Source: Eledone cirrhosa
Lineage: Eukaryota
Direction of reading: 5' to 3'
NCBI GenBank assembly: GCA_964016885.1
Contig: OZ024741.1
Location: 82,708,001-82,772,000, forward strand
Length of the DNA stretch: 64,000 nt
Positions 8,509 through 62,888 of the stretch are shown here, in pieces. Each line of letters begins with the position of its first letter. Positions within the stretch are counted from its first letter, which is position 1. The translations under genes and the position numbers were made by a program. Below the pieces are notes generated by a model. That model had not been told where the DNA came from. It saw only the letters and a program-made list of their open reading frames with translations, and searched no databases.

Positions 8509-9394
8509 TATGGTGTGTCAGAAAAGTCCCAGGACTGATGTCACAAAAGATTTATTTCAAACCCAAAGTTCACACTAAGAGTGTTCTCCTTCAAAATAAT
8601 ACCCCTGGAGTCGAATGCACTTTTCCATCCTTTTCTGTCACGCTTGCATGCACTCCTGTAAGGATTCTTCCGGGATCCTCCGCAGTTCCGTCGTCACGGC
8701 CTTTCTGATGTCGTCCACGTCTTCAAAACGGGTCCCCTCCGGGGCATACTCGAATATCCATGCCTCATCACCGGTGATGACTGTCCCTAGACAGTCTGGT
8801 TCGGTTTCAAGACGCTCGAGGATGTTCTGGCACACTTGCATGCGTCGACCCTTCTGGTCTTCGTGCAGCAGTTTTGGCACCATCTTCGCGCAGACTTTCC
8901 GCATGTCCAAATCTTCAGTGAGAATCGTTCAGACGCTGTCCCGATTCATGCCCAGCTCATTAACCATCAGTCGAACAGTCAGCCGACGATCGCTACGCAC
9001 CATCTGCCTGACGCGCTCAACGTTGACCTGAGTCCTGATTGTTGAGGGCGTTCCACTCCTGGGGTCATCTTCCACGCCCTCGCGTCCTTCTTCAAACCTC
9101 TTGCACCACTCAAAAACACGTGAGTGTGACATCGTCTCATCTCCAGACACTTGCTGTAGCAATCCCAGTGCTTCTGACGGAGTTTTCCATTTTGTTCGTT
9201 GCTCTGTGCTCATTGCTTGACGACCGGAAACAGAGGACATGAATATAAAATTATGAAGAAAAAGGTTTGTTCGCTGCAGAGAGCTAAGATTACAGTTACA
9301 TACTCCAGGGGGGTTACTTTGAAGGAGAAAACTCTTAGTGTGAAGTTTGGGTTTTAAATAACTCTTTTCTGGAACCTTTCTGACACACCTCGTA
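8509..9394 (-). mobile_element. Internally deleted mariner (Tc1/mariner) DNA transposon
   Basis: Imperfect TIRs of ~90-100 bp (ggtgtgtcagaaa...acccaaa.ttcacactaagagt.ttctccttcaaa...cccctggag) flanked by TA. HTH region VFEWCKRFEEGREGVEDDPRSG, then MRKVCAKMVPKLL and ITGDEAWIFEY fused to the C-terminus; most of the DDD domain is missing. Confidence 0.9.
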
Positions 9395-9412
9395 TATATA
9401 TATATATACATA

Positions 9413-9956
9413 TACTAGCTGTTTAACCCGGTTTTAGCCGGGAGATTTGGTTCACTGACAAGAATTCAACTTCTTTTCTCCACCAAGAAACCAACAAAAA
9501 TAACAAAAAGGGAACACGAAAAACAAAACATATTCAGAAACCCTAATAAATTTACTGTCAAATAAGGTTGAGAACAGAAATATGATTTTGACGTGAAAAA
9601 CGAACCACCGGAATGCCACCCATTTAAACGGCTTATTGTAGTTAAATAAACTAATGAAATGCAAAGTATGCTTTATTAATTTGAATGTGTTGTTTATGCA
9701 GTAGAAATCTGCCTAGAACGCGCAAAACATCAAATCTCGTAATTGAGCGTTCACGATACTGACCTGACGTCAGTTCAATTTGAATGGAACATTCCTGTTT
9801 CATCGATTTTCTCCGTAACCATGGAGAACCAACGCCTCCTCGGGTCATTCTACAAAACCGTATAACTTTTCGCTGCATTCCACCAAGACGGTTCGACGTT
9901 TATCCGACTACACCTACATATACAACGTCCGTCCACTTCCAATTTATATAGTAGAT
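9413..9956 (+). mobile_element. Putative non-autonomous Helitron/Helentron-like element
   Basis: 5' tactagctg followed by the hairpin cccggttttagccggg; 3' end tttatatagtagat; non-coding; between (TA)n tracts. The termini resemble Lep1/DINE-type rolling-circle elements. Confidence 0.45.
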
Positions 9957-11490: not shown

Positions 11491-11550
<60 letters not shown>

Positions 11551-11562
<12 letters not shown>

Positions 11563-13363
11563 TATAGACATAGAATATTCGAAAATATTCTGTATGTTTA
11601 TAATAAACATTTTGAAGACCTAATCGCTATAGAATAGAATACGTCACGTATTACAATTAGATTCTCGATAAAAGCAAGGGAAGTAATCTACGCGTTTCAT
11701 TCTTGTTAGAATTCATCAGGACTACATATCCAGTGCTTTTATCGAGAATGACACAGCTAGAGACTTATAGAATACTTAGCTGTGTACAGGAACTGGTTTG
11801 AAAGAGCGGTTGCCGGTCCGGCAGAAATTAGAAATTGGAATAAATGCTCTGAAATAGCGATATATATATGAATATAGACATAGAATATTCGAAAATATTC
11901 TGTATGTTTATAATAAACATTTTGAAGACCTAATCGCTATAGAATAGAATACGTCACGTATTACAATTAGATTCTCGATAAAAGCAAGGGAAGTAATCTA
12001 CGCGTTTCATTCTTGTTAGAATTCATCAGGACTACATATCCAGTGCTTTTATCGAGAATGACACAGCTAGAGACTTATAGAATACTTAGCTGTGTACAGG
12101 AACTGGTTTGAAAGAGCGGTTGCCGGTCCGGCAGAAATTAGAAATTGGAATAAATGCTCTGAAATAGCGATATATATATGAATATAGACATAGAATATTC
12201 GAAAATATTCTGTATGTTTATAATAAACATTTTGAAGACCTAATCGCTATAGAATAGAATACGTCACGTATTACAATTAGATTCTCGATAAAAGCAAGGG
12301 AAGTAATCTACGCGTTTCATTCTTGTTAGAATTCATCAGGACTACATATCCAGTGCTTTTATCGAGAATGACACAGCTAGAGACTTATAGAATACTTAGC
12401 TGTGTACAGGAACTGGTTTGAAAGAGCGGTTGCCGGTCCGGCAGAAATTAGAAATTGGAATAAATGCTCTGAAATAGCGATATATATATGAATATAGACA
12501 TAGAATATTCGAAAATATTCTGTATGTTTATAATAAACATTTTGAAGACCTAATCGCTATAGAATAGAATACGTCACGTATTACAATTAGATTCTCGATA
12601 AAAGCAAGGGAAGTAATCTACGCGTTTCATTCTTGTTAGAATTCATCAGGACTACATATCCAGTGCTTTTATCGAGAATGACACAGCTAGAGACTTATAG
12701 AATACTTAGCTGTGTACAGGAACTGGTTTGAAAGAGCGGTTGCCGGTCCGGCAGAAATTAGAAATTGGAATAAATGCTCTGAAATAGCGATATATATATG
12801 AATATAGACATAGAATATTCGAAAATATTCTGTATGTTTATAATAAACATTTTGAAGACCTAATCGCTATAGAATAGAATACGTCACGTATTACAATTAG
12901 ATTCTCGATAAAAGCAAGGGAAGTAATCTACGCGTTTCATTCTTGTTAGAATTCATCAGGACTACATATCCAGTGCTTTTATCGAGAATGACACAGCTAG
13001 AGACTTATAGAATACTTAGCTGTGTACAGGAACTGGTTTGAAAGAGCGGTTGCCGGTCCGGCAGAAATTAGAAATTGGAATAAATGCTCTGAAATAGCGA
13101 TATATATATGAATATAGACATAGAATATTCGAAAATATTCTGTATGTTTATAATAAACATTTTGAAGACCTAATCGCTATAGAATAGAATACGTCACGTA
13201 TTACAATTAGATTCTCGATAAAAGCAAGGGAAGTAATCTACGCGTTTCATTCTTGTTAGAATTCATCAGGACTACATATCCAGTGCTTTTATCGAGAATG
13301 ACACAGCTAGAGACTTATAGAATACTTAGCTGTGTACAGGAACTGGTTTGAAAGAGCGGTTGC
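11551..13363 (-). repeat. Tandem array of a 310-bp hammerhead-containing unit, ~5.8 copies, ribozyme on the minus strand
   Basis: aatatagaca recurs at 11561, 11871, 12181, 12491, 12801 and 13111; HHR at 11683-11725 and every 310 bp after. Confidence 0.95.
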
Positions 13364-13394
13364 TCTTATATATTCTATAAGTCTTATATATTCT

Positions 13395-16300
13395 TATATA
13401 TTCTATAAGTCTCTAGCTGTGTCATTCTCGATAAAAGCACTGGATATGTAGTCCTGATGAATTCTAACAAGAATGAAACGCGTAGATTACTTCCCTTGCT
13501 TTTATCGAGAATCTAATTGTAATACGTGACGTATTCTATTCTATAGCGATTAGGTCTTCAAAATGTTTATTATAAACATACAGAATATTTTCGAATATTC
13601 TATGTCTATATTCATATATATATCGCTATTTCAGAGCATTTATTCCAATTTCTAATTTCTGCCGGACCGGCAACCGCTCTTTCAAACCAGTTCCTGTACA
13701 CAGCTAAGTATTCTATAAGTCTCTAGCTGTGTCATTCTCGATAAAAGCACTGGATATGTAGTCCTGATGAATTCTAACAAGAATGAAACGCGTAGATTAC
13801 TTCCCTTGCTTTTATCGAGAATCTAATTGTAATACGTGACGTATTCTATTCTATAGCGATTAGGTCTTCAAAATGTTTATTATAAACATACAGAATATTT
13901 TCGAATATTCTATGTCTATATTCATATATATATCGCTATTTCAGAGCATTTATTCCAATTTCTAATTTCTGCCGGACCGGCAACCGCTCTTTCAAACCAG
14001 TTCCTGTACACAGCTAAGTATTCTATAAGTCTCTAGCTGTGTCATTCTCGATAAAAGCACTGGATATGTAGTCCTGATGAATTCTAACAAGAATGAAACG
14101 CGTAGATTACTTCCCTTGCTTTTATCGAGAATCTAATTGTAATACGTGACGTATTCTATTCTATAGCGATTAGGTCTTCAAAATGTTTATTATAAACATA
14201 CAGAATATTTTCGAATATTCTATGTCTATATTCATATATATATCGCTATTTCAGAGCATTTATTCCAATTTCTAATTTCTGCCGGACCGGCAACCGCTCT
14301 TTCAAACCAGTTCCTGTACACAGCTAAGTATTCTATAAGTCTCTAGCTGTGTCATTCTCGATAAAAGCACTGGATATGTAGTCCTGATGAATTCTAACAA
14401 GAATGAAACGCGTAGATTACTTCCCTTGCTTTTATCGAGAATCTAATTGTAATACGTGACGTATTCTATTCTATAGCGATTAGGTCTTCAAAATGTTTAT
14501 TATAAACATACAGAATATTTTCGAATATTCTATGTCTATATTCATATATATATCGCTATTTCAGAGCATTTATTCCAATTTCTAATTTCTGCCGGACCGG
14601 CAACCGCTCTTTCAAACCAGTTCCTGTACACAGCTAAGTATTCTATAAGTCTCTAGCTGTGTCATTCTCGATAAAAGCACTGGATATGTAGTCCTGATGA
14701 ATTCTAACAAGAATGAAACGCGTAGATTACTTCCCTTGCTTTTATCGAGAATCTAATTGTAATACGTGACGTATTCTATTCTATAGCGATTAGGTCTTCA
14801 AAATGTTTATTATAAACATACAGAATATTTTCGAATATTCTATGTCTATATTCATATATATATCGCTATTTCAGAGCATTTATTCCAATTTCTAATTTCT
14901 GCCGGACCGGCAACCGCTCTTTCAAACCAGTTCCTGTACACAGCTAAGTATTCTATAAGTCTCTAGCTGTGTCATTCTCGATAAAAGCACTGGATATGTA
15001 GTCCTGATGAATTCTAACAAGAATGAAACGCGTAGATTACTTCCCTTGCTTTTATCGAGAATCTAATTGTAATACGTGACGTATTCTATTCTATAGCGAT
15101 TAGGTCTTCAAAATGTTTATTATAAACATACAGAATATTTTCGAATATTCTATGTCTATATTCATATATATATCGCTATTTCAGAGCATTTATTCCAATT
15201 TCTAATTTCTGCCGGACCGGCAACCGCTCTTTCAAACCAGTTCCTGTACACAGCTAAGTATTCTATAAGTCTCTAGCTGTGTCATTCTCGATAAAAGCAC
15301 TGGATATGTAGTCCTGATGAATTCTAACAAGAATGAAACGCGTAGATTACTTCCCTTGCTTTTATCGAGAATCTAATTGTAATACGTGACGTATTCTATT
15401 CTATAGCGATTAGGTCTTCAAAATGTTTATTATAAACATACAGAATATTTTCGAATATTCTATGTCTATATTCATATATATATCGCTATTTCAGAGCATT
15501 TATTCCAATTTCTAATTTCTGCCGGACCGGCAACCGCTCTTTCAAACCAGTTCCTGTACACAGCTAAGTATTCTATAAGTCTCTAGCTGTGTCATTCTCG
15601 ATAAAAGCACTGGATATGTAGTCCTGATGAATTCTAACAAGAATGAAACGCGTAGATTACTTCCCTTGCTTTTATCGAGAATCTAATTGTAATACGTGAC
15701 GTATTCTATTCTATAGCGATTAGGTCTTCAAAATGTTTATTATAAACATACAGAATATTTTCGAATATTCTATGTCTATATTCATATATATATCGCTATT
15801 TCAGAGCATTTATTCCAATTTCTAATTTCTGCCGGACCGGCAACCGCTCTTTCAAACCAGTTCCTGTACACAGCTAAGTATTCTATAAGTCTCTAGCTGT
15901 GTCATTCTCGATAAAAGCACTGGATATGTAGTCCTGATGAATTCTAACAAGAATGAAACGCGTAGATTACTTCCCTTGCTTTTATCGAGAATCTAATTGT
16001 AATACGTGACGTATTCTATTCTATAGCGATTAGGTCTTCAAAATGTTTATTATAAACATACAGAATATTTTCGAATATTCTATGTCTATATTCATATATA
16101 TATCGCTATTTCAGAGCATTTATTCCAATTTCTAATTTCTGCCGGACCGGCAACCGCTCTTTCAAACCAGTTCCTGTACACAGCTAAGTATTCTATAAGT
16201 CTCTAGCTGTGTCATTCTCGATAAAAGCACTGGATATGTAGTCCTGATGAATTCTAACAAGAATGAAACGCGTAGATTACTTCCCTTGCTTTTATCGAGA

Positions 16301-16439
16301 ATCTAATTGTAATACGTGACGTATTCTATTCTATAGCGATTAGGTCTTCAAAATGTTTATTATAAACATACAGAATATTTTCGAATATTCTATGTCTATA
16401 TTCATATATATATCGCTATTTCAGAGCATTTATTCCAAT
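13395..16439 (+). repeat. Tandem array of the same 310-bp unit in inverted orientation, ~9.8 copies
   Basis: ctctagctgt recurs at 13411, 13721 ... 16201; it is the reverse complement of the left array. Confidence 0.95.
13448..13490 (+). ncRNA. Minimal type I hammerhead ribozyme (representative of 16 copies)
   Basis: gtagtc-CTGATGA-attct-aaca-agaat-GAAA-cgcg-TA-gattac: intact core, 5-bp stem II, palindromic CGCG stem III. Confidence 0.92.
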
Positions 16440-16516: not shown

Positions 16517-16820
16517 ATGAATTATAAGTAAAGGAAGTCATATAAGTGTTCATTCAATAATAAATTGCTCCGAAGAATCCAAACCTCGGTTTGGAGGAAA
16601 CAGTTGTAAGCATAAACATGTTTTGAACAGTTCTTTGATTCTTATGATTCATATAACTGCTCTGTAAATCATCTGATGTTATTACATTGAGGTATTTAAC
16701 TTACTGGTAATAAGATAGTAGTATATTACTGCCTACCACTATTTAGGGTTTATAAAAATATATATAACTACAAAAGGTTTTTGTATTTGCATAACCATAA
16801 ATGGTATAATCAATACTATA
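16510..16820 (+). mobile_element. Solo 3'-end fragment of the PLE family at 27140-32180, with a variant hammerhead at 16566-16612
   Basis: Homologous to the reverse complement of 27140-27430; tgct-CCGAAGA-a-tccaaac-ctcg-gtttgga-g-GAAA-cagttg-TA-agca. Confidence 0.8.
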
Positions 16821-16856
16821 TATATATATGTAAATTTATATATATATATATATATA

Positions 16857-19800
16857 TAAACGGAAAAATATGAAACGATATTTCATTTCCCACTCTTAGT
16901 ACGGCTGTTACTTAAATATAAGTATGTACACGTACATACATATATGTATACCGACGTACAGTAGTATGTATATATATATATACATACATGCACACATATA
17001 TATATATGCACGTATGGATTCACCGAACATTTATTATAATGCTCGGTGTGTTTGTAAACAAACATCCCGTATTAAGCCGTAGTGTCTAGCAACCACCGTT
17101 GCTCGTTTGTTCAACACTGACAAAGGAACACTGTACTAGTTTCAAGCTTGTTAGCTATCGTCAGCAACGTATACCTTCCTGCCACATTGTTGAACGTATA
17201 TACTTACCTTATGCATATTAACGGCTGAGTAGCCCAAAATGCATATCGAGTGGGTTAGTCGGCCGGGTGCACCAAAAACGATAAACGGAAAAAAATGAAA
17301 CGATATTTCATTTCCCACTCTTAGTACGGCTGTTACTTAAATATAAGTATGTATACGTACATACATATATGTATACCGACGTACAGTAGTATGTATATAT
17401 ATATGTACATACATGCACACATATATATATGCACGTATGGATTCACCGAACATTTATTATAATGCTCGGTGTGTTTGTAAACAAACATCCCGTATTAAGC
17501 CGTAATGTCTAGCAACCACCGTTGCTCGTTTGTTCAACACTGACAAAGGAACGCTGTACTAGTTTCAAGCTTGTTAGCTATCGTTAGCAACGTATACCTT
17601 CCTGCCACATTGTTGAACGTATATACTTACCTTATGCATATTAACGGCTGAGTAGCCCAATATGCATATCGAGTGGGTTAATCGGCCGGGTGCACCGAAA
17701 ACGATAAACGGAAAAAAATGAAACGATATTTCATTTCCCACTCTTAGTACGGCTGTTACTTAAATATAAGTATGTACACGTACATACATATATGTATACC
17801 GACGTACAGTAGTATGTATATATATATATATACATACATGCACACATATATATATGCACGTATGGATTCACCGAACATTTATTATAATGCTCGGTGTGTT
17901 TGTAAACAAACATCCCGTATTAAGCCGTAGTGTCTAGCAACCACCGTTGCTCGTTTGTTCAACACTGACAAAGGAACGCTGTACTAGTTTCAAGCTTGTT
18001 AGCTAACGTCAGCAACGTATACCTTACTGCCAGATTGTTGAACGTATATACTTACCTTATGCATATTAACGGCTGAGTAGCCCAATAAGCATATCGAGTG
18101 GATTAATCGGCCGGGTGCACCGAAAACGATAAACGAAAAAAAATGAAACGATATTTCATTTCCCACTCTTAGTACGGCTGTTACTTAAATATAAGTATGT
18201 ACACGTACATACATATATGTATACCGACGTACAGTAGTATGTATATATATATATACATACATGCACACATATATATATATGCACGTATGGATTCACCGAA
18301 CATTTATTATAATGCTCGGTGTGTTTCTAAACAAACATTCCGTATTAAGCCGTAGTGTCTAGCAACCACCGTTGCTCGTTTGTTCAACACTGACAAAGGA
18401 ACGCTGTACTAGTTTCAAGCTTGTTAGCTATCGTCAGCAACGTATACCTTCCTGCCACATTGTTGAACGTATATACTTACCTTATGCATATTAACGGCTG
18501 CGTAGCCCAATATGCATATCGAGTGGGTTAATCGGCCGGGTGCACCGAAAACGATAAACGGAAAAAAATGAAACGATATTTCTTTTCCCACTCTTAGTAC
18601 GGCTGTTACTTAAATATAAGTATGTACACGTACATACATATATGTATACCGACGTACAGTAGTATGTATATATATATATACATACATGCACACATATATA
18701 TATGCACGTATGGATTCACCGAACATTTTTTATAATGCTCGGTGTGTTTGTAAACAAACATCCCGTATTAAGCCGTAGTGTCTAGCAACCACCGTTGCTC
18801 GTTTGTTCAACACTGACAAAGGAACGCTGTACTAGTTTCAAGCTTGTTAGCTATCGTCAGCAACGTATACCTTCCTGCCACATTGTTGAACGTATATACT
18901 TACCTTATGCATATTAACGGCTGCGTAGCCCAATATGCATATCGAGTGGGTTAATCGGCCGGGTGCACCGAAAACGATAAACGGAAAAAAATGAAACGAT
19001 ATTTCATTTCCCACTCTTAGTACGGCTGTTACTTAAATATAAGTATGTACACGTACATACATATATGTATACCGACGTACAGTAGTATGTATATATATAT
19101 ATACATACATGCACACATATATATATGCACGTATGGATTCACCGAACATTTTTTATAATGCTCGGTGTGTTTGTAAACAAACATCCCGTATTAAGCCGTA
19201 GTGTCTAGCAACCACCGTTGCTCGTTTGTTCAACACTGACAAAGGAACGCTGTACTAGTTTCAAGCATGTTAGCTATCGTCAGCAACGTATACCTTCCTG
19301 CCAGATTGTTGAACGTATATACTTACCTTATGCATATTAACGGCTGAGTAGCCCAATATGCATATCGAGTGGGTTAATCGGCCGGGTGTACCGAAAACGA
19401 TAAACGGAAAAAAATGAAACGATATTTCATTTCCCACTCTTAGTACGGCTGTTACTTAAATATAAGTATGTACACGTACATACATATATGTATACCGACG
19501 TACAGATATATATATATATATATATATATGCATACATGCACACATATATATATATGCACGTATCGATTCACTGAACGTTTATTATAATGCTCGGTGTGTT
19601 TGTAAACAAACATCCCGTATTAAGCCGTAGTGTCTAGCAACCACCGTTGCTCGTTTGTTCAACACTGACAAAGGAACGCTGTACTAGTTTCAAGCTTGTT
19701 AGCTATCGTTAGCAACGTATACCTTCCTGCCACATTGTTGAACGTATATACTTACCTTATGCATATTAACGGCTGAGTAGCCCAATATGCATATCGAGTG

Positions 19801-22800
19801 GGTTAATCGGCCGGGTGCACCGAAAACGATAAACGGAAAAAAATGAAACGATATTTCATTTCCCACTCTTAGTACGGCTGTTACTTAAATATAAGTATGT
19901 ACACGTACATACATATATGTATACCGACGTACAGTAGTATGTATATATATATATATACATACATGCACACATATATATATGCACGTATGGATTCACCGAA
20001 CATTTATTATAATGCTCGATGTGTTTGTAAACAAACATCCCGTATTAAGCCGTAGTGTCTAGCAACCACCGTTGCTCGTTTGTTCAACACTGACAAAGGA
20101 ACGCTGTACTAGTTTCAAGCTTGTTAGCTATCGTTAGCAACGTATACCTTCCTGCCAGATTGTTGAACGTATATACTTACCTTATGCATATTAACGGCTG
20201 AGTAGCCCAATATACATATCGAGTGGATTAATCGGCCGGGTGCACCGAAAACGATAAACGGAAAAAAAATGAAACGATATTTCATTTCCCACTCTTAGTA
20301 CGGCTGTTACTTAAATATAAGTATGTACACGTACATACATATATGTATACCGACGTACAGTAGTATGTATATATATATATACATACATGCACACATATAT
20401 ATATGCACGTATGGATTCACCGAACATTTATTATAATGCTCGGTGTGTTTGTAAACAAACATCCCGTATTAAGCCGTAGTGTCTAGCACCCACCGTTGCT
20501 CGTTTGTTCAACACTGACAAAGGAACGCTGTACTAGTTTCAAGCTTGTTAGCTATCGTCAGCAACGTATACCTTCCTGCCAGATTGTTGAACGTATATAC
20601 TTATCTTATGCATATTAACGGCTGAGTAGCCCAATATGCATATCGAGTGGGTTAATCGGCTGGGTGTACCGAAAACGATAAACGGAAAGAAATGAAACGA
20701 TATTTCATTTCCCACTCTTAGTACGGCTGTTACTTAAATATAAGTATGTACACGTACATACATATATGTATACCGACGTACAGTAGTATGTATATATATA
20801 TATACATACATGCACACATATATATATATGCACGTATGGATTCACCGAACATTTATTATAATGCTCGGTGTGTTTGTAAACAAACATCCCGTATTAAGCC
20901 GTAGTGTCTAGCAACCACCGTTGCTCGTTTGTTCAACACTGACAAAGGAACGCTGTACTAGTTTCAAGCTTGTTAGCTATCGTCAGCAACGTATACCTTC
21001 CTGCCACATTGTTGAACGTATATACTTACCTTATGCATATTAACGGCTGCGTAGCCCAATATGCATATCGAGTGGGTTAATCGGCCGGGTGCACCGAAAA
21101 CGATAAACGGAAAAAAATGAAACGATATTTCATTTCCCACTCTTAGTACGGCTGTTACTTAAATATAAGTATGTACACGTACATACATATATGTATACCG
21201 ACGTACAGTAGTATGTATATATATATATACATACATGCACACATATATATATGCACGTATGGATTCACCGAACATTTTTTATAATGCTCGGTGTGTTTGT
21301 AAACAAACATCCCGTATTAAGCCGTAGTGTCTAGCAACCACCGTTGCTCGTTTGTTCAACACTGACAAAGGAACGCTGTACTAGTTTCAAGCTTGTTAGC
21401 TATCGTCAGCAACGTATACCTTCCTGCCAGATTGTTGAACGTATATACTTACCTTATGCATATTAACGGCTGAGTAGCCCAATATGCATATCGAGTGGGT
21501 TAATCGGCCGGGTGTACCGAAAACGATAAACGGAAAAAAATGAAACGATATTTCATTTCCCACTCTTAGTACGGCTGTTACTTAAATATAAGTATGTACA
21601 CGTACATACATATATGTATACCGACGTACAGTAGTATGTATATATATATATATACATACATGCACACATATATATATATGCACGTATGGATTCACCGAAC
21701 ATTTATTATAATGCTCGGTGTGTTTGTAAACAAACATCCCGTATTAAGCCGTAGTGTCTAGCAACCACCGTTGCTCGTTTGTTCAACACTGACAAAGGAA
21801 CGCTGTACTAGTTTCAAGCTTGTTAGCTATCGTCAGCAACGTATACCTTCCTGCCACATTGTTGAACGTATATACTTACCTTATGCATATTAACGGCTGC
21901 GTAGCCCAATATGCATATCGAGTGGGTTAATCGGCCGGGTGCACCGAAAACGATAAACGGAAAAAAATGAAACGATATTTCATTTCCCACTCTTAGTACG
22001 GCTGTTACTTAAATATAAGTATGTACACGTACATACATATATGTATACCGACGTACAGTAGTATGTATATATATATATACATACATGCACACATATATAT
22101 ATGCACGTATGGATTCACCGAACATTTTTTATAATGCTCGGTGTGTTTGTAAACAAACATCCCGTATTAAGCCGTAGTGTCTAGCAACCACCGTTGCTCG
22201 TTTGTTCAACACTGACAAAGGAACGCTGTACTAGTTTCAAGCTTGTTAGCTATCGTCAGCAACGTATACCTTCCTGCCAGATTGTTGAACGTATATACTT
22301 ACCTTATGCATATTAACGGCTGAGTAGCCCAATATGCATATCGAGTGGGTTAATCGGCCGGGTGTACCGAAAACGATAAACGGAAAAAAATGAAACGATA
22401 TTTCATTTCCCACTCTTAGTACGGCTGTTACTTAAATATAAGTATGTACACGTACATACATATATGTATACCGACGTACAGTAGTATGTATATATATATA
22501 TATACATACATGCACACATATATATATATGCACGTATGGATTCACCGAACATTTATTATAATGCTCGGTGTGTTTGTAAACAAACATCCCGTATTAAGCC
22601 GTAGTGTCTAGCAACCACCGTTGCTCGTTTGTTCAACACTGACAAAGGAACGCTGTACTAGTTTCAAGCTTGTTAGCTATCGTCAGCAACGTATACCTTC
22701 CTGCCACATTGTTGAACGTATATACTTACCTTATGCATATTAACGGCTGCGTAGCCCAATATGCATATCGAGTGGGTTAATCGGCCGGGTGCACCGAAAA

Positions 22801-24658
22801 CGATAAACGGAAAAAAATGAAACGATATTTCATTTCCCACTCTTAGTACGGCTGTTACTTAAATATAAGTATGTACACGTACATACATATATGTATACCG
22901 ACGTACAGTAGTATGTATATATATATATATACATACATGCACACATATATATATGCACGTATGGATTCACCGAACATTTTTTATAATGCTCGGTGTGTTT
23001 GTAAACAAACATCCCGTATTAAGCCGTAGTGTCTAGCAACCACCGTTGTTCGTTTGTTCAACACTGACAAAGGAACGCTGTACTAGTTTCAAGCTTGTTA
23101 GCTATCGTCAGCAACGTATACCTTCCTGCCAGATTGTTGAACGTATATACTTACCTTATGCATATTAACGGCTGAGTAGCCCAATATGCATATCGAGTGG
23201 GTTAATCGGCCGGGTGTACCGAAAACGATAAACGGAAAAAAATGAAACGATATTTCATTTCCCACTCTTAGTACGGCTGTTACTTAAATATAAGTATGTA
23301 CACGTACATACATATATGTATACCGACGTACAGTAGTATGTATATATATATATACATACATGCACACATATATATATGCACGTATGGATTCACCGAACAT
23401 TTATTATAATGCTCGGTGTGTTTGTAAACAAACATCCCGTATTAAGCCGTAGTGTCTAGCAACCACCGTTGCTCGTTTGTTCAACACTGACAAAGGAACG
23501 CTGTACTAGTTTCAAGCTTGTTAGCTATCGTCAGCAACGTATACCTTCCTGCCAGATTGTTGAACGTATATACTTATCTTATGCATATTAACGGCTGAGT
23601 AGCCCAATATGCATATCGAGTGGGTTAATCGGCCGGGTGTACCGAAAACGATAAACGGAAAGAAATGAAACGATATTTCATTTCCCACTCTTAGTACGGC
23701 TGTTACTTAAATATAAGTATGTACACGTACATACATATATGTATACCGACGTACAGTAGTATGTATATATATATATATACATACATGCACACATATATAT
23801 ATGCACGTATGGATTCACCGAACATTTATTATAATACTCGGTGTGTTTGTAAACAAACATCCCGTATTAAGCCGTAGTGTCTAGCAACCACCGTTGCTCG
23901 TTTGTTCAACACTGACAAAGGAACGCTGTACTAGTTTCAAGCTTGTTAGCTATCGTCAGCAACGTATACCTTCCTGCCAGATTGTTGAACGTATATACTT
24001 ACCTTATGCATATTAACGGCTGAGTAGCCCAATATACATATCGAGTGGATTAATCGGCCGGGTGCACCGAAAACGATAAACGGAAAAAAAATGAAACGAT
24101 ATTTCATTTCCCACTCTTAGTACGGCTGTTACTTAAATATAAGTATGTACACGTACATACATATATGTATACCGACGTACAGTAGTATGTATATATATAT
24201 ATACATACATGCACACATATATATATGCACGTATGGATTCACCGAACATTTATTATAATGCTCGGTGTGTTTGTAAACAAACATCCCGTATTAAGCCGTA
24301 GTGTCTAGCAACCACCGTTGCTCGTTTGTTCAACACTGACAAAGGAACGCTGTACTAGTTTCAAGCTTGTTAGCTATCGTCAGCAACGTATACCTTCCTG
24401 CCAGATTGTTGAACGTATATACTTATCTTATGCATATTAACGGCTGAGTAGCCCAATATGCATATCGAGTGGGTTATCGGCCGGGTGTACCGAAAACGAT
24501 AAACGGAAAGAAATGAAACGATATTTCATTTCCCACTCTTAGTACGGCTGTTACTTAAATATAAGTATGTACACGTACATACATATATGTATACCGACGT
24601 ACAGTAGTATGTATATATATATATACATACATGCACACATATATATATGCACGTATGG

Positions 24659-24660
<2 letters not shown>
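16857..24660 (-). repeat. Tandem array of a ~425-bp hammerhead-containing unit, ~18.4 copies
   Basis: aaacggaaa..aatgaaacgatatttcatttcccactc recurs from 16858 to ~24500 at ~424-426-bp intervals with few substitutions; (TA)n on both sides. Confidence 0.95.
17129..17169 (-). ncRNA. Minimal type I hammerhead ribozyme (representative of 18 copies)
   Basis: Minus-strand consensus cgttg-CTGACGA-t-agct-aaca-agct-t-GAAA-ctag-TA-cagcg; palindromic CTAG stem III. Confidence 0.88.
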
Positions 24661-24722
<62 letters not shown>

Positions 24723-24929
24723 TATCGACGCCACCCCATCTATGGTTCAGCTAACCACCCGACTCCCGGGAATGAATATGACCGCAGCTAGTAAACAAGG
24801 ATCAACACCCCACCCTCCCGCACCAAAATTAGACTTATCGTCCCCTACTTTTGCTCTTTACTCTCTTTACACTTTGTTCTTGAATGTTTGGTTGGTAGAG
24901 TCCATAACACCAATCAAACCCCTTTTATA

Positions 24930-24974
24930 GCTCTGACGAATCCTACGGTTACGTAAGGAAGAAACATTGTAAGC
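24930..24974 (+). ncRNA. Minimal type I hammerhead in a ~300-bp PLE-end-like fragment (24721-25022)
   Basis: gct-CTGACGA-a-tcctacg-gtta-cgtaagga-a-GAAA-cattg-TA-agc; the fragment lies between (TA)n tracts. Confidence 0.72.
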
Positions 24975-25019
24975 CAATAAACATTTTTTGATGTTGTAGA
25001 CGCTCTTCTGTTCTTTATC

Positions 25020-25090
<71 letters not shown>

Positions 25091-27143: not shown

Positions 27144-30100
27144 TAAAGGATACTATTTATGGTTATGTATGTAATAAAACCTTTAATGGTAATATATTAT
27201 TAATACAAACCCTAAATAGTGAAAGATAGTCATTAATTACTATCCTATTACCAGTAAGATAAATAGCTCAATGTAATAACATCAGTTGTTTTACAGAGCA
27301 GTTATATAGAGAGTACAATAATCAAAGTTCAGTTTAAGTCATTTATTTGCTTACAATTGTTTCCTCCAAACCGAGGTTTGGATTCTTCGGAGCAACTATT
27401 TACTGATCTATAACATACTTGACCTCCTTTTCAACCCAAGAGACATATAAAACATATGCGCATATTGATCAACAGTGGGGTGACATTCATCAAATGATAT
27501 AGCATGGCAATTTACATATAAAGGTTACAGGATAAAAATAAAAATAAAAATAAAAACAAAAATGAAAATAAAGATAAACATGAAGCGTTGGCAGTCTATG
27601 AAGGTAAAGCAAGAGGAAAGTTTAGAGTAGTCAGTGTATGAAACAATCTCACGTGTAGCATGCACGCGTGTCTTTTTTATACATGATTAGAGTGCGTCAG
27701 AATGATATTTGCAGGGTCAGGCAGTTGAAGCAGGCAATCGATCTTATCATGTGGGCTGAATTATTAAGTCATTTATTCGCATACATCTATATGATATACA
27801 GTCCCGGATGCAGGGAAACACCAACATATCAAAAACTTTCAACATACTATAAACCTTATTGTATCGTAGGCAAAGCCGTACCACTGTCTTCGCTCACACC
27901 ACCACTCACATAATCCATGAGACGCAATATATAGAACACGTGTCTATCGTATAATTCACGATGGTTCGGCATATAATCAAGTTATGTAGCGTATCTAGTC
28001 TGTTCTTAATTAATAGATCATGCTGTTTAGATTCCGGAAGTGTCTGAATGACTAAGGGGAGTTAAAGCGTAAGGGGAGGTAACTAGCTAGTTATCTTAGT
28101 TAAATTATTATCCTAAACTACATTAATGGTGATTCAAATACGTGCCTATCATATGAAGTTATAACTAATTTCTAGAGTATGTTTCCCATTTATAGGTTAG
28201 AGAGTTGTCCATTAAGAAGTACAAGGGTGTATATATTAGGATGATTACCATCCATTAAGGGGTGTCATATCTGAACATTCTATAAGAGGAGTCAGACTCT
28301 CAAATCACTGTTCCATGCAAATGTAATATAACAGTAGGACCTGGTATGGTCCCACTATTATATATGCCCCCCCCCCCCGGTAGGCTCCGGGTCATTGCAT
28401 GTCTGAATCTCCGGTAAATCTGAGTACCTTCGGGGTGGTCCGGAGATCTAATTTCTCATATAAAGGCACTAGTCTGGTCATCAAGCAATAGACAACCCCC
28501 ATCTCATATATAAATCAATTAAGTATCACATCTACAAGTTAGAGTGGAGTCTATTAATAGGTACTAAAGGAGTTCATATCATGATAATTACAATCTGGAG
28601 ATTAAATCTCTCATACCAGGACACCTGTCTAGCCACCAAGCAATACATAAACTCGCATCCCACATATAGATCAGGTATCCCATCCACAAGTTAGAGTGGA
28701 GTCCAGTAACAAGTACTAAAGGCGTTCATATCATGATGATTACAATCCAACATGGGGTGCCACACCCGGCCAATCCATAAGAAGAGTCAGACTACATAAT
28801 TAATTACATGGGTCTCACTATCAGTAATGGTCTTATTATCGTACATGACTCCCGGCGAGATTCAGGTCGTAGTATGACTGCATCCCCGGTAAATTCACCA
28901 GGGTGGTCCAGTGGCCGGTTCTCTCGTCAAAAGATGCCGGTCAGGTCACCAGGCAACACAGAAGCTCCTAACTCATGCATCGCCTGTGCATAGTTCATTG
29001 AACTGATCGTTTACAGTATATATTCACATAACAATACGATTATCTATCTGATCATCAATCTATCTCTTGGTGGCAATCCATGCACAGGACTATGTTATCG
29101 CAACCAGTAACGTGTCCGCGGTTTATACTAATCTTATGCAATGCAGACTAAGTAGTCTACGGTCGAGATATCAGAATTAGAGGTACAAGGGGGTATTCCC
29201 AGGGTAGGTGGTACTAAAATGCTGTCAGTATTATCTTTAGAGTATATAAATGGGTGTGGATGTGAGGTGTAAGGTGAGCTACTGATGTTAATTGATAGGG
29301 GTGGTGCCGGTTCCAGTCTGACATTATTATATATAGGGTTTAAAGTTTTGGAACGAGTGTCGGAAGCGGTGTTGGCAAGTTGCGAACACTTCTGATTTTT
29401 TATTAAGGAGATTATGTTTAGAGAAGATGATAGTATGGGTCTCTAGTAGACAGAGGTTACACAATTTATTAGGTGGTTTGTACGATGTTGCACTACCTAC
29501 CACTTCCCATTTAAGTGTATATATTTTATTTTTAGTTTTTAGATAGTGTATGTAGCTAGATAGTGAAGTGGAGTTGGCTAGACTGTGTTTTTTGAAAGAG
29601 TGTAGGTGCGAATTGTATCTAGTTTCGAAGCAGATAGAAGTAGAGCCTATATAGGTTTCAGAAGAGTTGTTAGTTGTGACTGTACATGAGTATATGATAT
29701 CCTTGGTTAAGCATTTGTTATCTAAAGGGCAGGTTCTACTTGATCTACAGTTACAATTACTCTGGGTGCTAGTCTGCCGGTTACTATGCTGTGTAGAAGT
29801 TTGGATGTTAGCTATAGGGTTATGGTTATGTGGGTTGTGGTACGCAGCGTTAATGTTTACACTAGTGCTATTACTATTATTTCCAATGATATTACGGTTA
29901 GTTGCTATAATGTTACTTTGACTGTTATTTTGAATGTTATTTTGAAGGTTTATCGACTGTTGTGATTTAGTTTGTTGGAAGTAAGAATTAATTTGTCTTT
30001 TATTTGTACTAGCTATGTGGTATGCTAAGTTAGGCGTAGTAGAGTATGAGATCTTAATAGTGTTTTTGTTTAAAAGGCCGTGGTACCTGTGGCCGGATGA

Positions 30101-32180
30101 GAAGTGTTTATCTAGTAGTGAGAAGAAAGCCCTAGGTAGGTTGGTAGAGACGTTTAACTTGAAAGGAGGGTTGGAAAATGTATTATTTCTTCTTCTATTT
30201 CTGTTTTTTATGTCTGGTGATTTGTTTCCTTTAATGTTCCTATGGTAATTTCTGTGGTGCGGGTTACTGTTGTTGTTACTATCACTATTAATGTGCGTGC
30301 AGTTGCTATTCCTATTATTAAATTTTCCCATGGACATGTTGTGTGAAATGATGTTGTAGCTATGTGTTTTTGTAGGTAGGAACTCTATCCCTGTATTATG
30401 GCCTGATCTAACTAATGCCTGATTATAATACTGCGAGTTATTGTTAAATGTGTTTATGTCATAGGATAGATTAGAGATTCTATTAGATACTCCCTTAGAG
30501 ATAGAGTTCAATATAGATTTAGGGTGGTTAGACTTGGTATCTACGTAGATGAGTTTTTCATTAGGTTTGTGGAAAGGTGCATATATCGTTGAGTCTAGGT
30601 AGAGTGTGGCGTCTAGGAAGTTGACGTTTTTGGTGTTTTTGTCCATGGTAATACTAAGGTTAAAGTTTTTGAATGTTTTGTGCAATAGTTTTCTAGTCCT
30701 TTCTATATTGAATTTTTTTGGATTGTAATCATCATGATATGAACTCCTTTAGTACTTGTTACTGGACTCCACTCTAACTTGTGGATGGGATACCTGATCT
30801 ATATGTGGGATGCGAGTTTATGTATTGCTTGGTGGCTAGACAGGTGTCCTGGTATGAGAGATTTAATCTCCAGATTGTAATCATCATGATATGAACTCCT
30901 TTAGTACCTATTAATAGACTCCACTCTAACTTGTAGATGTGATACCTAATTGATTTATATATGAGATGGGGGTTGTCTATTGCTTGATGACCAGACTAGT
31001 GCCTTTATATGAGAAATTAGATCTCCGGACCACCCCGAAGGTACTCAGATTTACCGGAGATTTACCGGATATTATATATCCCCCCTACCGGGGGGGGATA
31101 TATAATAGTGGGACCATACCAGGTCCTACTGTTATATTACATTTGCATGGAACAGTGATTTGAGAGTCTGACTCCTCTTATAGAATGTTCAGATATGACA
31201 CCCCTTAATGGATGTTAATCATCCTAATATATACACCCTTGTACTTCTTAATGGACAACTCTCTAACCTATAAATGGGAAACATACTCTAGAAATTAGTT
31301 ATAACTTCATATGATAGGCACGTATTTGAATCACCATTAATGTAGTTTAGGATAATAATTTAACTAAGATAACTAGCTAGTTACCTCCCCTTACGCTTTA
31401 ACTCCCCTTAGTCATTCAGACACTTCCGGAATCTAAACAGCATGATCTATTAATTAAGAACAGACTAGATACGTATATAACTTGATTATATGCCGAACCA
31501 TCGTGAATTATACGATAGACACGTGTTCTATATATTGCGTCTCATGGATTATGTGAGTGGTGGTGTGAGCGAAGACAGTGGTACGGCTTTGCCTACGATA
31601 CAATAAGGTTTATAGTATGTTGAAAGTTTTTGATATTTTGGTGTTTCCCTGCATCCGGGACTGTATATCATACATATGTATGCGAATAAATGACTTAATA
31701 ATTCAGCCCACATAATAAGATCGATTGCCTGCTTCAACTGCCTGACCCTGCAAATATCATTCTGACGCACTCTAATCATGTATAAAAAAGACACGCGTGC
31801 ATGCTACACGTGAGATTGTTTCATACACTGACTACTCTAAACTTTCCTCTTGCTTTATCTTCATAGACTGCCAACGCTTCATGTTTATCTTTATTTTCAT
31901 TTTTGTTTTTATTTTTATTTTTATTTTTATTTTTATTTTTATTTTTATTTTTATTTTTATCCTGTAACCTTTATATGTAAATTGCCATGCTATATCATTT
32001 GATGAATGTCACCCCACTGTTGATCAATATGCGCATATGTTTTATATGTCTCTTGGGTTGAAAAGGAGGTCATGTATGTTATAGATCAGTAGATAGTTGC
32101 TCCGAAGAATCCAAACCTCGGTTTGGAGGAAACAATTGTAAGCAAATAAATGACTTAAACTGAACTTTGATTATTGTAAT
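27140..32180 (-). mobile_element. 5'-truncated PLE with a ~2.2-kb 3' UTR and a ~1.45-kb inverted duplication of that UTR
   Basis: ORF 29327-30685; 30720-32180 is the near-identical reverse complement of ~27316-28748; variant HHRs at 27347-27395 (-) and 32097-32145 (+). Confidence 0.9.
29327..30718 (-). CDS. PLE C-terminal part: RT thumb, Asn-rich linker, Cys motif and GIY-YIG endonuclease (N-terminally truncated)
   Basis: VNFLDATL, PFHKPNEKLIYVDTKSNHP, CNCRSSRTCPLDNKCL, IIYSC..TYIGST, CNLCLLE. Confidence 0.85.
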   Translation of the reverse strand, partial: KKFNIERTRKLLHKTFKNFNLSITMDKNTKNVNFLDATLYLDSTIYAPFHKPNEKLIYVDTKSNHPKSILNSISKGVSNRISNLSYDINTFNNNSQYYNQALVRSGHNTGIEFLPTKTHSYNIISHNMSMGKFNNRNSNCTHINSDSNNNSNPHHRNYHRNIKGNKSPDIKNRNRRRNNTFSNPPFKLNVSTNLPRAFFSLLDKHFSSGHRYHGLLNKNTIKISYSTTPNLAYHIASTNKRQINSYFQQTKSQQSINLQNNIQNNSQSNIIATNRNIIGNNSNSTSVNINAAYHNPHNHNPIANIQTSTQHSNRQTSTQSNCNCRSSRTCPLDNKCLTKDIIYSCTVTTNNSSETYIGSTSICFETRYNSHLHSFKKHSLANSTSLSSYIHYLKTKNKIYTLKWEVVGSATSYKPPNKLCNLCLLETHTIIFSKHNLLNKKSEVFATCQHRFRHSFQNFKPYI

Positions 32181-33578: not shown

Positions 33579-35620
33579 CTAGTAAAGTCCTTTGTATACT
33601 TTATGGAATGTTCTGTGGAATTTATGCAAGCAGAGAGAAAATAAACCAGTGCGTCTATTTATTATAGAATCTAAATTAGATATAATGGTAAATTTCTCAG
33701 ATAGGCAAAGATTACACGTTCTGGATAGCGAGGCATTCAAGTAGGAAGAGGCAGAACAAACTTCCCTCCAAGAGATGTTATAGTTAATATGTTTGTCTTT
33801 CAAGGACCACATGAGTCCTGAGAGTGCCGTGTTAGTTCTTTTAAGTTGGTATCTAAAAGACGAATTGTGATTATAAAATCTCGCTTTGAAGCAGGTGGAA
33901 GTGGAACCGAAACAGGTAAAGGAATTGGTATCAGTTATAACCTTAACGTTCATAGACTAAGTTTTTTTCAAGACAAGGGTTATTCAGAGGACATTTAGTT
34001 TTAACAGGGCAATTACAATTGCGATTAGAGAAATTAACAGAGTTATTAACAAGTGACCTAGTGTTATTTATAGGAGGAATTGGATTGGAGAAGTTATTTA
34101 CGATAGGAATAATAGTTTCCTGATTTAGATTGGTATTATGAACATTCAACGAAGTTACATTTGACGTCGTATTTGAGTTTGCAGTATCGAGCCTAGAGTT
34201 AACAATGACGTCGGGAGTATTACTGCTATTATTATGACACTCAGTGTTGGAAGGATGTGATTTAATATTTAATATTTTATTGTTGTGTTTAGAGATAATG
34301 TTATAGATGTTGGAGGAGGTGGAATAGGAAAATGTTATTGTATGTTTGTTAAAGATTTTATTATAGATATGTGAGGGAGGGAAGCATTTATCTAAGGCCC
34401 TAAATAATAGTTTGGGAATAGTGGCGGTGGATTGGCAGCATTGGTAGAGGGTCGGACGCCATGCTTTGACGCATAGAGATACGGCCCTTACCATTCTGAG
34501 TTCAAATCCCGCCGAGGTTAACTTTGCCTTTCATCCTTACGGGGTCGCTAAAATAAAGTACCAGTAATACACTGGGTATTTGCTGGCCTTGTGCCTAACG
34601 TAGAAACAATTATTATTAATAGAAATAGAGAAAGGAGCATTATATATTTGTATCTAGGTCTTTTATTTAAGTTATTGGAATGATCATAATTAATTATTTT
34701 ACTATAAGTCCTTCTAGGATTGGTTTCTTTACTGTATTTAATTTTATCAGGATAACCGGCTTTACAAAGCGCATTATTATAGTAATTGGCGTTAGCATCA
34801 AATATATTTTTATTAGAGGATAGGTTTGATATTCTTTTTCCAATATTACTAACTATAGCATTTTTAATGTTAGTGGAGTGGTTAGATTTAAAATTAACAT
34901 AATTTAGATTTTCATTGTTTTTATGGTAAAGGTAATATATGCCAGTGTCAAGATTAAGGGATATATTGAAGAAGTTAGCTAGTTTGACGTTGTTATCAAA
35001 TTCGATTTTAAGGTTATGTTGCTTAAAGAAATCACGTATATTGTTCTTAATAATATTAAGGTTAACTAAATTGCAATTTAAGATATTAAAAAGTCCATCG
35101 TCACGATAAATTCCACCGCGAAGTTGAGGAATTTTCCGATTTAAAGAATTCAAAATAAACATACCAATCAAATCAGTCAATTGCGATGAATCGGAAGCAC
35201 CCATTTTGATATCAAAATTGTTGGAGGTATCAACTCTAGTCCAGTATTCATTGTTGAATTCTAAGATGGTTTTTCTTGCGTTGAGAATGATGTGAAGTTC
35301 ATCTGTGCTGATATCAGAATATTTAAATGGGAAAGATAGAGCATTGTTGAGAAGTGAAGGCGAAATAGAAGAATAATAACTGGCAATATCAAATTGAATA
35401 AATTGTTGTTTGTTTTTCTTATTCAGGTTGTTGAACCCGCCAATTACTTCAGATGTACCAAACCATAAATTTAAGTTAGAAATAGAGCAATTAGAACGAA
35501 CCTGATGGATAGTTCTATCCAAGATGGCTTTACTAACAACCCCCAGATCTGATTTAGAGGGGGCGATTAGTCTAACAGATTGTTCCGTTCGAAAATTACT
35601 TTTATGATCCTTGACATTTA
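33579..35620 (-). pseudogene. PLE RT/GIY-YIG ORF broken by a SINE insertion and a frameshift
   Basis: ORF pieces 34548-35522, 33943-34494 and 33579-33953. Confidence 0.85.
34422..34618 (+). mobile_element. Full-length tRNA-derived SINE inserted in the PLE ORF
   Basis: A-box tggcagcattgg, B-box gagttcaaatcc, MetaSINE-like gcctttcatccttacggggtcg.taaaataaagtaccag, (att)n tail. Confidence 0.8.
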
Positions 35621-36300
35621 TCCTAACATATTATATTATTACCATTAGAAAATATTTCGTAAACATATTTATTTTGATGTTAGACATTTTCTTCCTTAAA
35701 CATTCTTTTCTTCCTTGCTTTTGCGCTCATTTTTAAACAAACTATTTACATATATTACGCACACATATTACATTACATGAAAACAAACTTAAACACTAAC
35801 TAATTCCTATAAATTCATAACTCATCCACTCTTCTACTTCTTTTCACATTATATCCTCAATAACATTAATATTTTTATTTTAATAATACATATTAACAAT
35901 TTCTTTTCCTCGCACATATTATTAAACACTTCAATATACAAACCTTAATTTAATATTACTCTTAACCCCTTTTTCTCTTCATCAACTTTTAATTTCAAAT
36001 TCTTTTAAATTATCTATCTTCCAACGGCTTTTTAACTTCTCTCTGTGAGACAATATATATTTTTCTCAGTTGTAAAGGCTATCTCTTTCTCTCTAACACC
36101 CACCTCTCCTCCTCTCTCATCCTTCCTTCTTATACTCCTCCCCCACCATTCTTTACTCTCCTTTCCTCCTCTTCCTTACTCTTTCCAACCCCCCGTCACT
36201 TTGTCCCAATATCACACATCAATGTTAAATTATTTTTCATATGTTGATTTAAAACTTCACTATTCACAAGTATTTTTTAACCTTCATATCATGTATCCCT

Positions 36301-39905: not shown

Positions 39906-40595
39906 GGGGATTCCTTTCTTTGTTTCTGTGCATTTCCTTTCTTCTGTCCTACGCCATTTTGTTTCTGTGTGTGTGGTGTGTGCTCAGTTTGCGCATGCGC
40001 CACATCCGGGTGTCTCTGTGTGTTTGTGTTCATTTATCTATTTGTTTATTTATATTTATTTACATGTTGTTGGTTGGTTGTTTGTTCTATGTGTGTGTGT
40101 GTTTTCATTTTGTCCTTAATTGTAAGTTGTGATGTTGCTGTTCCACTCATATTTTCTATTTAATTTTGGTTGTAATTCTTTTATGCTTACTGCCTCTGTA
40201 ATTTGCCTAAACATTGCATCTTTTCTGTGTGTGGATTCTATTTTTATTTCTATGTTCTCGAATTTGCCCTTGTGTTCTATCTTAGCATGTTGGTAGAGTA
40301 CAGATGATTCTTTATTATCTTGAAGGTCTCGCCAGTGTTCATTTATCCGTTCCCCTATACTACGAGCTGTCTCACCTATGTACACTATATTTTTGTTTCT
40401 ACATTGTCCTTCAGTACATCTTATGCTATACACTACATTTCTAGTTTTACAGTTAATATGGGGGCTTATTTTACAGGTTATACATTTCTTATCTATACAT
40501 GAGGGTCTTTGGAACGGGTATGTCTTGCTAATAAGTGTTTTTACGGAGGTACCTGGTCTAGGTAAAAACACTTATTAGCAAGACATACCCGTTCT
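39861..40595 (-). mobile_element. Short 3' PLE fragment: GIY-YIG ORF 40116-40571, a 3' hammerhead and a 5' fold-back
   Basis: NVVYSIRC..VYIGETARSIGERINEH, RQITEAVSI..QPKLN; hairpin 40511-40593. Confidence 0.88.
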
Positions 40596-60003: not shown

Positions 60004-60114
60004 AGAATAGAAGTAAAGAATAGAATTCGAAGAGGGGCGATAAGGATTATATTTATATATAAATACATATATATATATATATTTCGCTCTACATGGCTGA
60101 ATATAATAAATGTG

Positions 60115-61520: not shown

Positions 61521-61652
<132 letters not shown>

Positions 61653-61739: not shown

Positions 61740-62797
61740 TTCGATTATTTTGTAAACAAACAGTTCGATTAAAGCTGTGCCGTGCTGATGACAAATCAAC
61801 ATCCGTTTATTCAACACCGGCATTGAGGACAATCAAAATGTTTCTTGGTCATTACCCTTCACCAGAACTGTATACCTCCCCCAGTCTGTTGAACGGTTGA
61901 AAATATATAGAATTTTCTGAAGTACACTTCGGCTGAGTAGCCTCATTTGCATACGGAGAGAGTTACGCCTAAGCGTGTCGAAAACTAAAACTAAAATACT
62001 ATATATATTCAATACTATATATTTTCAATCATCCAACAGACTGGCAAACGTATACAGTGCAGCTGAAGGGTAATGACCAATAAACATGTTGATTGTTCCT
62101 GAATGCCAGTGTTGAACATTGAAAAATGAACGATGGTTGCTAGACACTACGGCTTAATTCGGGATGTTAGTTTACAAACACACCGAGCATTATAATAAAT
62201 GTTCGGTGAATACATACGTACATATATATATATGTGTGCATGTATGTATATATATATATATACATACTACTGTACGTCTGTATACATATATGTATGTACG
62301 TATACATACTTATATTTAAGTAACAGCCGTACTAAGAGTTGGAAATGAAATTTCGTTTCATTTTTTCCGTTTATCGTTTTCGGTACCCCGGCCGATTAAC
62401 TCACTCGATATGCAAATTAGGCTGCTCAATAGTTAATATGCATAAGGAAAGTATATACTTTCAGACGTTCAATCATCTGGCAGGAAGGTATACGTTGCTG
62501 ACGATAGCTAATATGCTTGAAACTAGTACAGCGTTCCTTTGTCAGTGTTGAACAAATGAGCAACGATGGTTGCTAGACACTGTACGGCTTAATTCGGGAT
62601 GTTTGTTTACAAACACACCGAGCATTATAATAAATGTTCGGTGAATCCATACGTACATATATATATGTGTGAATGTATGTATATATACATACATACTACT
62701 GTACGCCTGTATGCATATATATATGTACGTGTACATACTTATATTTAAGTAACCGCCGTACTAAGAGTGGGAAATGAAATTTCGTTTCATTTTTGCC

Positions 62798-62801
<4 letters not shown>
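61740..62801 (+). mobile_element. Second, diverged locus of the ~425-bp retrozyme-like family (~1.8 units on + and an inverted diverged unit at 61740-61990)
   Basis: 62100-62801 aligns to the reverse complement of the array unit; HHR at 62493-62533 cgttg-CTGACGA-tagctaatatgctt-GAAA-ctag-TA-cagcg. Confidence 0.85.

Positions 62802-62888
<87 letters not shown>

Follow-up and report, generated by a model that had tools for sequence, protein, structure and literature searches.

How animal retrozymes re-enter the genome, and how Penelope-like elements (PLEs) produce inverted insertions that have a tail at one end, are two questions raised by the locus analyzed here. The locus is a stretch of 64,000 nucleotides (nt) of contig OZ024741.1 of Eledone cirrhosa (hereafter the window), and the element in question is a tandem array of a 424-base-pair (bp) repeat with one predicted hammerhead ribozyme per unit on the minus strand. 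We consider it likely that the repeat is a dispersed non-coding hammerhead element, i.e., an animal retrozyme of the kind that is not associated with long terminal repeats (non-LTR), which is copied by a PLE into (TA)n tracts, probably from a small RNA circle. Taken separately, the assignment to a PLE-type retroelement can be made with considerable confidence, and for the template we lean slightly toward a circular RNA. The putative start sites of the copying, which are exact (nt 216 and nt 276 of the monomer), and the (TA)n target bear on both questions. As judged from sequence comparisons, the 424-bp repeat is a new, young family of a known class, the non-LTR retrozymes, and its fixed paired ends are a clear PLE footprint. 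The class being already known, the surprise is moderate. The same genome holds very young copies and candidate enzymes, which brings both questions within reach of the in vitro assay already established for PLEs.

Family in the Genome and Its Paired Ends

The genome (3.0 Gb in 1,796 contigs, rich in AT and microsatellites) was searched with an exact 35-mer of the hammerhead, which gave 1,853 matches, with 0 for the control; 41 separate places are found in the first 123 Mb of contig C1. The locus sample consists of 40 of these 41 places, taken from the first 100 listed matches on this contig with one long array omitted, and it leans to young copies. One sampled locus, L039 (G000:C1:51772500-51778500), is a long array of at least 14 units with ~90% identity, the ends of which lie beyond the fetched stretch; it was excluded from the end counts, leaving 39 loci. 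Another long array of the family is located at G000:C1:53356203-53368647. An initial annotation of the window had spoken of a retrozyme family and proposed a genome-wide copy search. The search finds the family dispersed, and the designation is borne out by units that are non-coding, tandem, and dispersed, with a conserved and covarying type I hammerhead.

In the 39 loci, the 3′ ends of the arms fall at nt 276 in 39 cases and at about nt 216 in 30, together 69 of 76 arms, the two sites being 60 nt apart. The defined ends run into (TA)n in 66 of the 69 cases, and both start sites show a microhomology of 3-5 nt (TA) to the tract. A target site duplication is unreadable, because the flanks of the family are themselves (TA)n. 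In the two-armed insertions (n = 25) the arms are arranged head to head with their 3′ ends outward; in 20 of them the two arms end at different sites, like ends occur in none, and five have one undefined end. Two of the 20 look duplicated, and for the 19 independent insertions the chance probability of such unlike pairing is p ~2e-6. The 5′ ends show an even distribution over the unit, with two of 69 near the cut site, and one or more cut sites are crossed by 55 of the 69 arms. Cut linear monomers were rejected as the template on account of these crossings and of the missing pile-up of 5′ ends at the cut site.

The fixed complementary 3′ ends, the random 5′ ends, and the constant outward polarity together constitute a retro-insertion pattern, and the inverted arms with a one-sided 60-nt tail match the footprint of PLEs. 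The one-of-each end rule is also followed in 13 of 14 two-armed insertions of a related family (D, 466 bp) and in 12 of 12 insertions of a family with a 310-bp unit, including the one that lies in the window. Moreover, a coding PLE family with a GIY-YIG domain has two 3′ ends ~67 nt apart, both running into (TA)n.

PLE insertions have been described as carrying an inverted 5′-truncated copy, a tail of 30-40 bp at one end, and a bias for microsatellites, and Chlamys is described as having non-autonomous forms with multiple head-to-tail copies (Craig et al. 2021, PMC8557442). In vitro, a PLE cuts and extends both strands, and two internal RNA start sites bound the tail (Frangieh et al. 2024, PMC11167929). 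As far as these accounts go, the 424-bp family shares with endonuclease-bearing PLEs the partial tandems, the inverted 5′-truncated copy, the tail at one end, the two internal start sites of the reverse transcriptase (RT), and the microsatellite or AT-rich targets. It differs from them in having no open reading frame (ORF), a tail of 60 nt rather than 30-40, the 3-5 nt of (TA)n microhomology, and the strict rule of one end of each kind.

Predicted Hammerhead Ribozyme and Candidate Promoter

On the minus strand, the order of the elements in each unit is the stem I 5′ arm, CTGACGA, stem II, GAAA, CTAG, the GUA cut site, and the stem I 3′ arm, with cleavage predicted after GUA, between 23504 and 23503 in the unit considered. 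Stem II comprises 4 bp and is closed by an AACA loop; its basal pair is a U.U mismatch. The initial annotation had placed a CTGACGA/GAAA core in each unit; this holds for GAAA-CTAG-TA, present in 18 of 18 units, but the exact CTGACGA is found in only 14 of them, three units having G8→A and one having A9→U together with a change in stem I. Similarly, two of the hairpins listed there, caccgaacatt/aatgctcggtg and gttcaaca/tgttgaac, are part of the predicted fold, while the third, cggctgagtagccca/tgggttaatcggccg, in which 3 of 15 positions are mismatched on the hammerhead strand, is missing from it.

Diverged relatives (subfamilies B2, B3, C, and D) were obtained from loci fetched from the genome. 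Two checks put forward in the initial annotation come out in favor of the ribozyme. First, the core is more conserved than the rest of the unit across loci, 11 of 11 catalytic positions being invariant among five subfamily representatives compared to 55 of 152 other positions. Second, the hammerhead strand folds more strongly as a circular monomer, with an energy of −146 kcal/mol (z −10) as compared to −119 kcal/mol for the opposite strand; a linear fold of the hammerhead strand without the TA hairpin has a z of −7.4. In an alignment of 12 sequences, 93.8% of the cells are paired and both partners vary in 13 of the 31 pairs, a level of covariation that was reached by 0 of 500 shuffles, with slid controls at 27-42%; these figures are not probabilities, since the sequences are related, which inflates the shuffle test, and the window unit itself served to define the structure. 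Stem III is palindromic yet changing, namely ACTAGT in the 424-bp family, ACATGT in family C, and ACGCGT in the 310-bp family, as expected of hammerheads that work in pairs (PMC4209133). To judge from these alignments, the hammerhead is under selection. A lower variation of the core among copies (1.0% vs 1.6% for the rest) was set aside, because the loci had been chosen by an exact match spanning the core. A loose hammerhead pattern is matched 152 times in the window and, on average, 7 times in shuffles, an excess that is inflated by the tandem copies.

With the canonical dimeric type I hammerheads, as described by Cervera and de la Pena (2014, PMC4209133), the motif shares a helix I of 6 bp, a helix II of 4 bp, a helix III of 1-2 bp, and a palindromic loop. 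It differs from the canonical type I in the U.U at the base of helix II and in matching no Rfam model.

An octamer, ATGCAAAT, is present in 11 of 11 aligned relatives, ~75-95 nt before the hammerhead core, and the youngest copies, the window array included, carry ATGCATAT in its place. A pattern built around the octamer has 17,100 matches. The promoter of newt satellite 2 includes an octamer. This satellite is also a dispersed tandem hammerhead repeat and is cited as having a promoter of the small nuclear RNA (snRNA) type (PMC2220036); by analogy, the conserved octamer could belong to a similar internal promoter, of which we regard it as a candidate part.

Array in the Window

Tandem Repeats Finder (TRF) calls the array at 16856-24660 with a period of 423 and 18.4 head-to-tail copies with 97% matches. 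The spacing of the units is 422-429 bp (nominally 424 bp), in agreement with the ~425-bp unit, repeated 18 times with a minus-strand hammerhead, that had been noted at the outset. The mean pairwise identity of the units is 98.4%, 14 of the 17 complete monomers are distinct, and the guanine-cytosine content is low (~38%). According to the ORF list, there is no ORF of at least 120 amino acids (aa) within the array, one low-complexity frame beginning in its last 100 bp and exiting it, and the ORF with RT and GIY-YIG domains of an autonomous PLE is absent from the array.

The 3′ terminus of the array is nt 276 of the monomer, and the partner arm is absent. The units form recurring haplotypes at non-adjacent positions, with an alternating two-unit pattern that occurs three times. 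The (TA)n-bounded ends, the missing partner arm, and the recurring haplotypes point to a one-armed retro-insertion with later local growth, i.e., the array likely began as a retro-insertion and then expanded by local unequal exchange; its mixed units may have been copied from a mixed donor array. A hammerhead fragment at 24722-25020 was considered as the partner arm and rejected, as it is dissimilar to the 424-bp unit and has its own TA tracts at its borders. This plus-strand fragment, which directly follows the array, resembles the pseudo-LTR (pLTR) of PLEs, has a hammerhead-like motif, and is flanked by two TA tracts.

The internal duplication seen here is satellite-like, and we have thus also considered that the family could be a satellite or fold-back repeat acting at the level of DNA, its spread being due to recombination or to an enzyme other than that of a PLE, e.g., that of the AAT-targeting long interspersed nuclear element (LINE) of the restriction-endonuclease type in the window, with the hammerhead as a relic. 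The existence of other long arrays such as L039 and the lack of a helper PLE in 93 coding loci (see below) would fit such a scheme. However, the fixed complementary 3′ ends, the random 5′ ends, and the outward polarity speak against it, the LINE copies of the window lie at (AAT)n rather than (TA)n, and the conservation and covariation of the core argue against a relic, such that we consider this explanation very improbable. The term satellite, used in the initial annotation, suits the window array, whereas the family, with a median arm length of 1.4 units, is not well described by it.

Possible Template of the Reverse Transcription

RTs, perhaps those of PLEs, have been proposed to copy retrozyme circles into tandem complementary DNA (cDNA) (Cervera and de la Pena 2020, PMC7229834). 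In the sampled family, young insertions have near-identical units in both arms. At L038 two private variants are common to units of both inverted arms, and at L062 one private variant is present in all units of the arm; this sharing points to a single-monomer bottleneck, as expected from one monomer copied repeatedly. The private substitutions, in the RNA sense, comprise 28 A→G compared to 13 T→C (p = 0.03), with G→A and C→T balanced, which gives a weak hint of an edited RNA stage.

An alternative that retains the PLE has transcription run through an existing array to give a linear multimer, which would serve uncut as the template, with the hammerhead used at another stage (processing or regulation) and no circle required. 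Arms that cross the cut site without a pile-up of 5′ ends fit multimers as well as circles, and mutants of the hammerhead left PLE insertion unaffected in vitro (PMC11167929). The recurring haplotypes of the window array could also derive from a mixed donor, and the two arms of L031 differ in one variant. On the other hand, the variants fixed across both arms of L038 or all units of the L062 arm speak for a single-monomer bottleneck, animal retrozymes occur, where tested, mainly as circular RNAs (PMC7229834), and the palindromic stem III is kept across families. The uncut multimer is judged to be unlikely.

For the circular template, the following mechanism can be envisaged. The minus strand would be transcribed, perhaps from an internal promoter containing the octamer, and adjacent hammerheads would pair via their palindromic stem III and cut out 424-nt monomers, to be circularized by a host ligase. 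A PLE complex with RT and GIY-YIG activities would then cut both strands of the (TA)n and prime from both ends, one RT starting at nt 276 and the other at nt 216 with the help of the TA microhomology. Each RT would travel round the template to a variable extent, after which the cDNAs of both would be joined head to head. The window array would have kept one arm and later have grown, likely by the local exchange discussed above. In the most specific form of this proposal, the insertions are direct records of bidirectional rolling-circle target-primed reverse transcription of an octamer-driven, self-transcribing 424-nt circle by a dimeric Penelope enzyme, each half acting at its own fixed site; this version is plausible but tentative, and we stop just short of adopting it. 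A rolling-circle step has been proposed for animal retrozymes, and, if the proposal is true, genomic insertions would record such copying from both ends of a cut (TA)n.

A number of observations weigh against a circle copied by a PLE. At L031, a variant is found in most units of one arm and in none of the other, a poor fit to one template, and the window array, being one-armed and mixed, gives no direct support for a rolling circle. The 60-nt tail exceeds the published PLE tail of 30-40 bp. In the PLE system of PMC11167929, uncut RNA is the main substrate and initiation takes place without homology, unlike the microhomology found here. A related terminal repeat on a coding PLE was found at 0 of 63 GIY-YIG loci, a small sample of 10,595 GIY-YIG candidates, and at 0 of 30 loci of the PLE family represented at 37034-38908 of the window; the helper search thus covered 93 coding loci, with six further loci lacking a readable ORF and one omitted. 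As to the ribozyme, the Rfam hammerhead models gave no match at the gathering threshold in the whole window, and none of 87 Rfam matches at E ≤ 10 in 1 kb of the array is a hammerhead. The U.U mismatch of stem II and the damaged cores of 4 of the 18 units may lower the activity, and eight of nine predicted Xenopus retrozymes failed to cleave in vitro, one of nine being cleaved (Li, Clavereau and Pollet 2026, 10.64898/2026.07.22.740005).

Two sets of matches from these searches were discarded. Three GIY-YIG loci with profile matches past the PLE's own end turned out to be neighbors across a TA tract, not terminal repeats, and the best sub-threshold Rfam matches, TA-rich microRNA models on the TA hairpin, were rejected as composition.

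Relation to Published Retrozymes

Metazoan non-LTR retrozymes consist of non-coding tandem units of a few hundred bp with low GC and one type I hammerhead per unit, are dispersed as anything from monomers to long multimers, and coexist with PLEs (PMC7229834; 10.64898/2026.07.22.740005), all of which applies to the 424-bp family. They have been argued to derive from pLTRs (10.64898/2026.07.22.740005). In the available text of these two sources, mobilization by PLEs is proposed from co-occurrence and similarity to pLTRs, whereas for the 424-bp family it is suggested by the footprint; fixed paired ends and inverted arms, both of which the family has, are not described there. A literature search, with most subscription papers and bioRxiv supplements outside its coverage, returned no paper on the 424-bp family and none on paired fixed ends in retrozymes.

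A metagenome scan with the hammerhead 35-mer gave 0 matches. In DNA runs of three organisms, 32-85% of the sequence words are in common, a figure that refers to shared words only. The matches in four RNA runs are confined to a TA-rich stretch and carry no weight either way on expression.

Neighboring 310-bp Family and Candidate Helpers

The 310-bp retrozyme insertion next to the array belongs to a family with 12,735 genome matches. At the junction of its arms (13364-13404) there are ~35 nt of short rearranged repeats. The initial annotation saw no evident similarity between the two units beyond the hammerhead, and indeed the closest correspondence outside TA runs covers 14 of 16 nt at stem II/GAAAC. 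The families can be called independent, as was done there, only in the sense of this lack of detectable similarity outside the hammerhead. The suggestion of a shared helper RT stands at the level of the enzyme class, both families having inverted arms, two fixed ends, and (TA)n; as to a PLE family common to both, the tails differ (60 nt compared to about 26-31 nt).

With regard to the further suggestion of an insertion hotspot, the locus is not special. The window contains 30 (TA) tracts with at least ten repeats, and multiple family-like insertions are present at 9 of the 40 sampled loci. A 310-bp array within 3 kb of a sampled 424-bp locus was observed once (0.09 expected), and the number of 310/424 pairs as close as that of the window expected genome-wide by chance is ~0.3, a rough value from the densities on contig C1. 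The best explanation of the apparent hotspot is that both families target (TA)n, with a pile-up in TA tracts.

The window contains five coding PLE fragments (2115-4271, 29327-30748, 33579-35630, 37034-38908, and 40116-40571) that belong to several families; three are confirmed by Pfam matches to RT or GIY-YIG, and at least three terminate in (TA)n. The family of the fragment at 37034-38908 has at least 150 copies with at least 92% identity and no canonical hammerhead in its 3′ region. The coding family with the two ends ~67 nt apart (L194, L198, L210, L211, L217, and L219) has a long 3′ region, no obvious canonical hammerhead, and some long open frames (938 and 844 aa). Families C, D, and E were considered as pLTRs and rejected: D and E were found as non-coding units, and no PLE ORF is joined upstream of E in 25 loci.

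Other Features of the Window

The positions of the main features are collected in Table 1.

Table 1. Features of the 424-bp family and of its surroundings, in window coordinates
Feature	Position	Strand	Basis
310-bp retrozyme insertion, a distinct element showing the same footprint; two inverted arms, 11550-13363 (minus) and 13399-16439 (plus)	11550..16439	.	TRF, end analysis
(TA)n tract at the 3′ junction, inferred target	16817..16858	.	TRF
60-nt "tail" of the terminal unit, between the short (nt 216) and long (nt 276) end sites	16856..16915	-	End mapping
Tandem array, 18.4 non-coding units, one-armed; RNA-sense 3′ end on the left, 5′-truncated on the right at about monomer nt 115-123	16857..24660	-	TRF, unit comparison
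Long TA-rich hairpin, in every unit, just 5′ of the short end site; limits approximate	23300..23385	-	Predicted fold
Extended type I hammerhead, one per unit: closing helix, three-part stem I, 4-bp stem II (AACA loop), palindromic ACTAGT stem III	23479..23565	-	Predicted structure, covariation
Octamer-like ATGCATAT, in every unit, candidate internal promoter element	23607..23614	-	Sequence comparison
(TA)n tract at the 5′ junction	24661..24721	.	TRF
Second, separate insertion of the 424-bp family, ~1.6 units, 90% identical, ending at nt 276 into (TA)n	62104..62803	+	Sequence comparison

The second insertion of the family is part of a composite structure at 61650-62803. This is an inverted insertion of family C, in which the plus arm passes over into the 424-bp family near 62104, within the homologous closing helix. 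Such a change suggests template switching or recombination between related retrozymes. An inverted pair of the related family E, with its own hammerhead, is located at 60080-60620; genome copies of family E have three or four octamers and two fixed ends.

Among the other mobile elements, several LINE copies of the restriction-endonuclease type are situated at (AAT)n tracts between 46494 and 58595, with one ORF of 1141 aa at 53428-56853. A broken LINE of the apurinic/apyrimidinic (AP) endonuclease type occupies 41185-43914, and a Mariner-type transposase fragment, with HTH_48/HTH_32 matches below the cutoff, is found at 8929-9414.

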